Source: a virus (Duplodnaviria > Heunggongvirae > Uroviricota > Caudoviricetes). Taken from it: DNA of 15,471 nucleotides. This document shows, one piece after another, positions 14,767 to 15,471 of the stretch (position 1 is the first letter of the stretch; the number at the start of each line of letters is the position of its first letter). Below the pieces are notes generated by a model that was not told the origin of the DNA, made no database searches, and saw only the letters and a program-made list of their open reading frames with translations. Made by a program: the position numbers and the translations under genes. The DNA is taken from IMG/VR virus record IMGVR_UViG_2563366885_000004. The stretch is one strand, 5' to 3'.

Positions 14767-15236
14767 TGGCCAGACGCAGCACAATAGAAAAGCTGCCGGA
14801 AGATGTGCGCCGCTGGCTTGAACGGGCGCTGACTGAATCCGGCTTCAGCGGGTATAACGAGCTGGAGTCCCTGCTGCGTGAGCGGGGGTACGTCATCAGC
14901 AAATCCGCTATCCATCGCTATGGACAGAAGATTGAGCGCCGCTATGGTGCTATCCGTGCGGCAACAGAAGCGGCCCGCATGCTGACCGAAGGCGCAGCAG
15001 ACGATCAGGATGCGCGTTCGGAGGCTGTGATAGCCCTTATTCAGACCGAGCTGTTCGAGAGTATTGTCCAGTTGCAGGAGGCGGAAGAAGGCGAAGTCGA
15101 TCCTAAAGAACGCGTGGCCCTGCTGTCGAAGGTGGCGAAGAATGTGGCTACGCTGTCCCGCGCGTCCGTCAACCTCAAAAAGTTCCAGTCTGAAGTGTCA
15201 ACGCCAAGATTATTGGCCGTTTTTCGCCATTTTTAA
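14766..15236 (+). pseudogene. Mu gp27-like small-terminase/DNA-binding protein, 3' end apparently replaced by IS sequence
   Basis: N-terminus MARRSTIEKLPEDVRRWLERAL is typical of small-terminase-like DNA-binding proteins. The reading frame runs into the IS terminal repeat region and stops at 15234..15236, so the last ~13 codons are probably IS-derived. Confidence 0.5.
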
Positions 15237-15471
15237 TGTCCGCTATTGGTCATTAATGTTGTCCGCTTTCCGCCATTTCATCATCACTGATTGGCGTGGC
15301 GTTTTTTGCCAGCACTCCCGCTTTGCGTTTTTCCTTTAATCGGTAGCTTTCTCCTTTGATGTTCAGTGTGGTTGAGTGGTGGAGCAGTCGATCCAGGATT
15401 GCCGTTGCCAGCACGTTATCGCCGAACATCTCTCCCCAGTCGGCGAACCCTTTATTTGACGTCAGCACGAT
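15196..15471 (-). mobile_element. IS21-family insertion sequence, right end (partial; continues beyond the window)
   Basis: IstB C-terminal coding sequence followed by about 55 bp containing reiterated short motifs (CGCCATTT x2, GTCCGCT x2, ATTGG x2), as expected for multi-site IS21 termini. Junction position is approximate. Confidence 0.55.
15253..15468 (-). CDS. istB: IstB-like ATPase, C-terminal fragment (5' part lies outside the window)
   Basis: [48 protein letters not shown] matches the conserved IstB C-terminus (DRLxHH...GESYRL). Confidence 0.7.

Follow-up and report, generated by a model that had tools for sequence, protein, structure and literature searches.

An IS21-family element inserted into the gp27-like gene of a BcepMu-type prophage of Escherichia coli

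The closest described relatives of the prophage studied here belong to Bcepmuvirus, i.e., BcepMu, Escherichia phage PhiKM (of uropathogenic E. coli), and Klebsiella phage KP12, from which the present copy is set apart by an IS insertion. At the affected locus, PhiKM encodes a gp27 protein annotated as "terminase small subunit, Mup27, D" that is 100% identical to the intact, 181-residue form of the protein (WP_000124060.1), and the gp27 small terminase subunit (TerS) of BcepMu shares 67% identity with it. The TerS stop codon overlaps or abuts the start of the large terminase (TerL) gene in all six phages compared (overlapping in PhiKM, BcepMu, B3, and B23; abutting in JBD67 and Lsp-JY19), an arrangement that suggests translational coupling of the two subunits. 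We take gp27 to be essential and to act as a small terminase, an assumption that combines database annotation with background on Mu D/E genetics; a literature search returned nothing directly useful on PhiKM, ISEc62, or Mu gp27 terminase function. The second described system of relevance comprises insertion sequences of the IS21 family (IS21, IS5376, IS100), whose members are ca. 2-2.5 kb long, carry istA (HTH and DDE transposase) together with istB, and have 5'-TG...CA-3' ends. Their terminal inverted repeats consist of several direct repeats spaced ca. 23 bp apart, and they generate a short target duplication. The element described below resembles them in genes, ends, repeats, and target duplication, and its reference copy, at ca. 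2.1 kb, falls into their size range.

The window that we analyzed (the whole stretch of 15,471 nt) is contained in scaffold KE136904.1 (1.23 Mb) of NCBI assembly GCA_000408125.1 and is part of an E. coli prophage. It shows 97% identity to PhiKM across 79% of its length, and an intact relative, a prophage of ca. 37 kb located beside nagE, is found in E. coli EC5654; positions 1..15196 of the window align to it over 15,196 nt with a single mismatch (99.993%; blastn). Read from the Mor end and ignoring strand, the EC5654 prophage encodes Mor, gp16/GemA, Gam, a B-like ATPase, a DDE transposase of 589 residues, and a repressor, next Dam, and then a holin, SLT, a lipoprotein, two small genes, and DUF3486 (gp27). 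These are followed by a TerL-like gene of 513 to 531 residues, portal (DUF935), Mu F, Mu G, head genes, and P2-like tail genes. From Mor over Gam to the B-like ATPase, transposase, repressor, Dam, holin, SLT, and gp27, the order is the same in the window. Both its DNA similarity and its gene order match classified members of the genus, by which we classify the element that received the insertion as a BcepMu-type (Bcepmuvirus-like) transposable prophage. The window begins with the stop codon of a Mor-family activator gene (1-390, minus strand), which is the last gene of the prophage on that side, so that the end of the prophage, together with the flanking host DNA (nagE in EC5654), should lie just beyond the window. 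We also observed an in-frame TGA at codon 105 (3008-3010) of the Gam-like host-nuclease inhibitor gene (2792-3322, minus strand), where PhiKM reads TGG (Trp). EC5654 has this stop as well, with Gam annotated as a pseudogene within an otherwise intact prophage, and the stop is therefore older than the IS insertion.

Identity to intact prophages breaks off at a sharp boundary, 15195|15196. When positions 14300-15471 were searched by megablast against 5,426 complete E. coli genomes, many prophage matches of 100% identity were obtained, all of which end at query position 897, i.e., window position 15196. The features around this boundary are listed here in window coordinates, with positions on the scaffold given as L003 and those of a reference IS copy as L002:

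14766..15195, plus strand: native 5' part of the gp27-like gene (Mu D/small-terminase-like, DUF3486), comprising codons 1-143 and the first base of codon 144
14766..15236, plus strand: chimeric open reading frame of 156 codons plus a TAA stop (15234-15236), with 144 native and 12 IS-encoded residues (STPRLLAVFRHF)
15192..15195, no strand: left copy of the 4-bp target duplication GAAG, with the right copy at L003 12849-12852
15196..15207, no strand: core of the terminal inverted repeat (TGTCAACGCCAA)
15196..15471, minus strand: istB-proximal (right) end of the IS, 276/276 identical to L002 3505-3780
15213..15281, no strand: three degenerate direct repeats in subterminal position, spaced by 23 bp (cores at 15214, 15237, and 15260)
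15253..15471, minus strand: 3' end of istB (AAA+ helper ATPase), with the last 72 codons, the stop at 15253-15255, and profile matches

The initial annotation had proposed an IS21-family element that ends at about 15196 and exposes the 3' end of an istB gene on the opposite strand, and both proposals are borne out by the TGTC.../...GACA ends, the perfect match of all 276 nt to a known copy, and the profile matches of IstA and IstB. Specifically, the istB fragment (open reading frame 15253..15468, minus strand) matches Pfam PF01695 at model positions 188-238 of 238 (78.8 bits; cutoff 24.1) and NCBIfam IS21_help_AAA (NF038214) at model positions 186-232 of 232, staying below the whole-protein cutoff of the latter because only 72 amino acids are present. 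A megablast search with 15150-15471 found the IS part in 612 of the 5,426 complete E. coli genomes, on chromosomes as well as plasmids and with at least 99% identity in hundreds of them. These matches are always annotated as "IS21-like element helper ATPase IstB", and the IS reaches up to 12 copies per genome. The best-ranked alignments run 4-14 nt past the terminus, which we put down to coverage ranking and to short or gapped chance matches.

A complete reference copy of 2125 bp lies beside cusS in E. coli strain 10035776-3 (L002 3505-5629) and carries istA, labeled "IS21-like element ISEc62 family transposase" by PGAP, and istB (L002 3562-4356). Its IstB reaches 296.3 bits with the NF038214 profile (cutoff 200) and its IstA 282.4 bits with NCBIfam transpos_IS21 (NF033546, cutoff 160), a profile with which the IstA encoded on our scaffold reaches 283.1 bits; the gene pair is thus an istA (DDE transposase) followed by an istB (AAA+ helper ATPase). 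The last base of the window, 15471, borders a scaffold gap of 980 N (L003 10708-11687) that lies inside the IS, and the 1,162 nt of IS sequence beyond this gap are identical to the reference copy at 1,160 positions. Measured against the 2125 bp of the reference, just 687 nt of the scaffold copy fall into the gap, so that the gap size must be an estimate and the IS appears ca. 290 bp too long on the scaffold. With its genes, ends, repeats, and target duplication all of the IS21 type, we assign the element to the insertion sequences of the IS21 family, with the PGAP label "ISEc62 family".

The partner end of the element, ...TTGGCGCTGACA, is found at L003 12837-12848 and reads TGTCAGCGCCAA inward, so that the two end cores agree at 11 of 12 positions and form a terminal inverted repeat with TG...CA ends, consistent with the CA at the 3' terminus that has been described for the ends of IS21-family elements (PMC10122671). 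Inside the end that is seen in the window, 57 bp of non-coding sequence starting at 15196 lie between the gp27-like reading frame and istB. The reiterated short motifs that had been noticed at this junction are real, if degenerate: the three units at 15214, 15237, and 15260 share the sequence TG(T/G)CCG(C/T)T...C(G/C)CCAT and continue into the 3' end of istB. Our repeat search recovered a 20-nt pair with 85% identity, whose copies at 15213 and 15259 are separated by 46 bp, and a 12-nt family with members at 15218, 15264, and 15300, and Tandem Repeats Finder reported nothing above its threshold on the IS end, i.e., no array. A TTGTCCGCT unit occurs at equal offset (+42/43) in both ends of the element, giving it, by sequence, the multiple direct repeats typical of the family (L1/L2, R1/R2), which IstA requires to act, and IS21 ends are reported to contain two or more direct repeats with 23-bp spacing (PMC10122671). 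We presume that these subterminal units are putative IstA-binding repeats of the terminal inverted repeat.

Two further observations concern the IS ends as such. Both read outward as TTGACA/CTGACA and resemble a consensus -35 element (15196-15201 on the minus strand; L003 12843-12848 on the plus strand); no usable -10 element for a hybrid outward promoter was found at either junction of the insertion, and we rejected this candidate. Just inside the IS end, window positions 15203-15217 can form a weak hairpin with a 5-bp stem (GCCAAGATTATTGGC then CGTTTTTCGCCATTTTT) that faces transcription arriving from the late operon, though such sites overall are not more frequent than expected by chance.

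Both junctions of the element could be read. A target-site duplication, for which the initial annotation had pointed to the far IS end outside the window, is indeed found on the scaffold, where GAAG flanks the element on both sides and the prophage continues in a colinear manner beyond it. The left junction is TCT GAAG|TGTCAAC (CCAGTCTGAAG|TGTCAACG) and the right junction is GCTGACA|GAAG TACGGG, reading ...GGCGCTGACA|GAAG|TACGGGCC on the scaffold or, in longer form, ...TTGGCGCTGACA|GAAG|TACGGGCCAGAGC..., with the remainder of gp27 on its far side; the intact target site has a single GAAG (...CCAGTCTGAAGTACGGG...; CCAGTCTGAAGTACGGGCC). Beyond the IS, the scaffold resumes with what remains of gp27 and goes on to the TerL, portal, and head genes, and this block aligns to the EC5654 prophage over 7,623 nt with one mismatch (blastn). 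The two prophage blocks are colinear and in like orientation, and on the EC5654 reference they overlap only by the duplicated bases, which excludes a deletion, an inversion, or a native gene end. The locus thus shows a simple integration event, of cut-and-paste or replicative type, at a 4-bp staggered cut. A staggered target cut has been described as the source of short duplications and IstB as an AAA+ regulator (PMC10122671; PMC11208146).

The length of the duplication could also be read as 5 bp (GAAGT), given that the T at position 15196 matches prophage and IS alike. We rejected this reading because the reference copy, flanked on both sides by 4-bp TGAA (TGAA|TGTCAAC...GCTGACA|TGAA), assigns this T to the IS; the flank of that copy is ATGAA where the window has TGAAG. 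The 4 bp shared by both copies compare to a target duplication of 5 bp for IS5376 (PMC10122671). An IS-end-like sequence, CGTCAACCTCAA, at 15167-15178, i.e., 29 bp upstream of the boundary, was considered as a targeting signal and rejected as indistinguishable from chance: allowing as many as 3 mismatches, the window contains 25 matches of this type where 16.5 are expected, or about one per 600 bp.

We put the probability that the structure is a simple IS insertion in the gp27-like gene at roughly 95%. The prophage halves are joined by scaffolding across a gap, with 687 nt of the IS unseen, and the same IS is present up to a dozen times in an E. coli genome, so one may ask whether the IS flank and the downstream half are truly adjacent or whether the DNA between two IS copies has been inverted, deleted, or translocated. 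Each junction, however, lies in contiguous sequence, carries the same GAAG, and abuts exactly those bases that are adjacent in the intact prophage, and both halves have the same orientation with one mismatch each to the reference. Had two separate IS copies recombined, the colinear flanks would not carry matching duplications, and we regard an artefact or rearrangement of this kind as very improbable. Still less credible, to the point of being negligible, is the idea that no mobile element is involved and that the gp27 gene naturally ends here in sequence native to the prophage lineage. All that speaks for it is the in-frame stop at 15234-15236, while the gene is uninterrupted with 181 residues in 532 complete genomes and in PhiKM, the Pfam match stops at position 137 of a 173-position model, and the 276 nt that follow are identical to those of an IS known from unrelated sites on chromosomes and plasmids, for which we rejected it.

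Simple insertion of the IS, which stands antisense to the late operon, has left a gp27-like gene that is identical to the 181-residue gene of EC5654 up to the junction and then runs into the element. As had been proposed, the C-terminus of the protein is lost: of 181 residues in the intact form, 144 native ones remain, to which 12 IS-encoded residues are added, and the 37 C-terminal residues are missing. The chimera is still recognized by Pfam PF11985 (Phage_Mu_Gp27) with 153.6 bits (gathering threshold 28) over model positions 1-137 of 173, and it falls short of the full length of ca. 180 residues including the C-terminal segment. A tblastn search with the 181-residue protein against 50,697 phage records gave 49 matching records, all but one of which (48/49) align over at least 80% of the query, and in the records listed the alignments extend to residues 177-181 even where identity is as low as 28-46%. 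All six full-length homologues that we aligned, BcepMu, B3, JBD67, Lsp-JY19, and B23 among them, have the C-terminal segment, with similar length and a conserved G-x-S/T...R...G pattern that is absent from the chimera. None of these six uninterrupted homologues ends at the position of the window's reading frame. Most of the invariant alignment columns fall into the retained N-terminal part, and a search of PDB sequences with gp27 yielded one non-significant match (RNA polymerase omega subunit, E = 0.26) and no homologue of solved structure. Compared to Mu gp27 (gene D) and BcepMu TerS, the allele in the window thus differs by the lack of the last 37 residues, the 12 foreign residues, and the IS in front of TerL, and we consider it a truncated member of PF11985 and effectively a pseudogene.

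The same insertion separates the truncated reading frame from TerL, with the IS and the duplicated 4 bp now lying between genes that are immediate neighbors in relatives. As a side note, sources differ in where the TerL-like gene starts: RefSeq PGAP places the start 51 nt past the gp27 stop (513 residues; L001 4012-4063), and the PhiKM record and the gene caller place it at an ATG that overlaps the gp27 stop (531 residues; L005 545).

For the wider operon, we found no sigma-70-like promoter on the plus strand from the IS through to where the G-like gene ends. Hairpins resembling terminators are located at L003 17302-17319, overlapping the last codons of the G-like gene, and downstream of it at L003 17385-17398. 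A shared motif of the form TTAAAATC(-10-like; N7-8)GCC(C)TGyATTT...CTGTCTCC precedes both the holin gene and the I-like head gene, and related motifs occur near tail genes, at the following positions:

window ~12345-12395, strand not specified: shared TTAAAATC motif upstream of the holin gene
L003 ~17465-17515, strand not specified: shared TTAAAATC motif in the 215-bp gap before the head gene
L004 18490-18586 and 11899-11952, reverse complement: related TTTAATATC motifs upstream of two tail genes

By inspection, we consider these motifs candidate Mor/C-type late promoters, with a recognizable -10 element only. Plys, PI, PP, and Pmom of Mu are activator-dependent late promoters that likewise have a -10 element and no -35 element (PMC2582627). 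The shared motif and the hairpins after the G-like gene together suggest a first late transcription unit that extends from the holin gene to the G-like gene and has the IS mid-way.

In our preferred reading, a copy of the 2125-bp IS21-family element with istA and istB transposed into codon 143/144 of the gp27-like gene in one E. coli strain. We propose that the truncated TerS-like protein would be non-functional, and that ca. 2.1 kb of untranslated, antisense IS RNA would split gp27 from the large terminase gene and break their coupling. Untranslated RNA within operons is a classic substrate for Rho-dependent polarity, and such polarity would be expected to affect every gene as far as the next late promoter, namely TerL, portal, and the Mu-F-like and G-like genes. 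Intrinsic terminators of the IS were considered as its cause and rejected, given that terminator-like sites in the element are not above the counts in shuffled sequence, so that polarity would hang on a presumed Rho effect. With the early genes and the holin/endolysin/lipoprotein cassette both located upstream of the IS, transposition, replication, and lysis should be retained; the prophage would still transpose, replicate, and lyse its host, with neither DNA packaging nor infectious particles. The gp27 truncation and the presence of the IS in the operon, with polarity on TerL, portal, F, and G, probably act together in this way, and, judging from the gene arrangement and from knowledge of the families, we consider it likely that the prophage is unable to produce particles, as the initial annotation had suggested. 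One point against the IS as the disabling event is that the Gam nonsense codon was already in the prophage lineage, which makes the fitness of the prophage before the insertion uncertain.

The insertion might instead be functionally mild, and particles might still be made, if gp27 can work with its N-terminal 144 residues, either on their own or complemented by a C-terminal remnant, and if read-through from the late promoter expresses TerL, portal, and head genes. An ATG located 36 nt inside the istA-proximal IS end (L003 12813) opens an open reading frame of 51 codons (L003 12813-12968) that encodes MVNYCLISLALT followed by EVRARAQQ...IAT. This frame is in register with the C-terminal remnant of gp27, is treated by the gene caller as a PF11985 gene of its own, and terminates at the native TGA overlapping the TerL ATG, which means that some TerL translation could persist. 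A mild effect would also fit with the lack of intrinsic terminators above chance in the IS in this orientation and with the concentration of invariant columns in the part of gp27 that is retained. However, the nearest Shine-Dalgarno-like GGAG lies ca. 13 nt upstream of the restart ATG and thus too far away, a C-terminal segment of similar length with its G-x-S/T...R...G pattern is kept in all six aligned homologues and the protein is aligned over at least 80% of its length in 48 of 49 matching phage records, and an untranslated stretch of ca. 2.1 kb in an operon RNA is, as established knowledge has it, just what Rho acts on. We therefore think that a mild outcome is unlikely. Going further, one could imagine either that induction lyses the host without releasing phage, leaving a prophage that is "grounded but armed", or that the in-frame restart inside the IS end, with its stop still overlapping the TerL start, gives a small terminase made of two pieces and packaging is kept; we give this pair of ideas rather long odds. 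If true, it would be a small curiosity regarding either IS21 ends that supply translation starts or the behavior of defective Mu-like prophages.

The preferred reading, an insertion that would abolish packaging, concerns a single strain as far as our searches extend. The uninterrupted site is present in 532 of the 5,426 complete E. coli genomes (ca. 10%), and the IS junction is present in none of them, with no record spanning the boundary by megablast. The exact junction pattern had no match in viral, species-representative, or metagenome contig collections, and the exact chimeric protein was found on one contig only in an assembly collection, seen in 2 samples; it was this match that gave the scaffold and the 10 kb downstream. 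Flanks that are 99.99% identical to intact copies and the absence of the junction elsewhere mark the insertion, from these comparisons, as very recent and private to one strain or assembly.

For annotation, the result means that this copy is best recorded as probably packaging-defective, although the prophage as such is present in ca. 10% of complete E. coli genomes, when otherwise gene callers list a 156-residue "gp27" and a 51-residue fragment as separate genes. It also explains the contig break as a repeat-induced gap and provides a clean, dated case for an IS21 element with the ISEc62 label, a recent one for which the 4-bp duplication and the two junctions are known; beyond annotation, its significance is small. 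That prophages decay and become domesticated when an IS disrupts their morphogenesis or packaging genes is well known, and the event is of a kind already known, an ordinary strain-private mutation without departure from known biology. It follows the same pattern as the IS-inactivated (cryptic or defective) prophages of enterobacteria, with an IS in a packaging gene of an otherwise intact prophage, and differs from these in being very recent, with flanks 99.99% identical to intact copies and a junction confined to one assembly.
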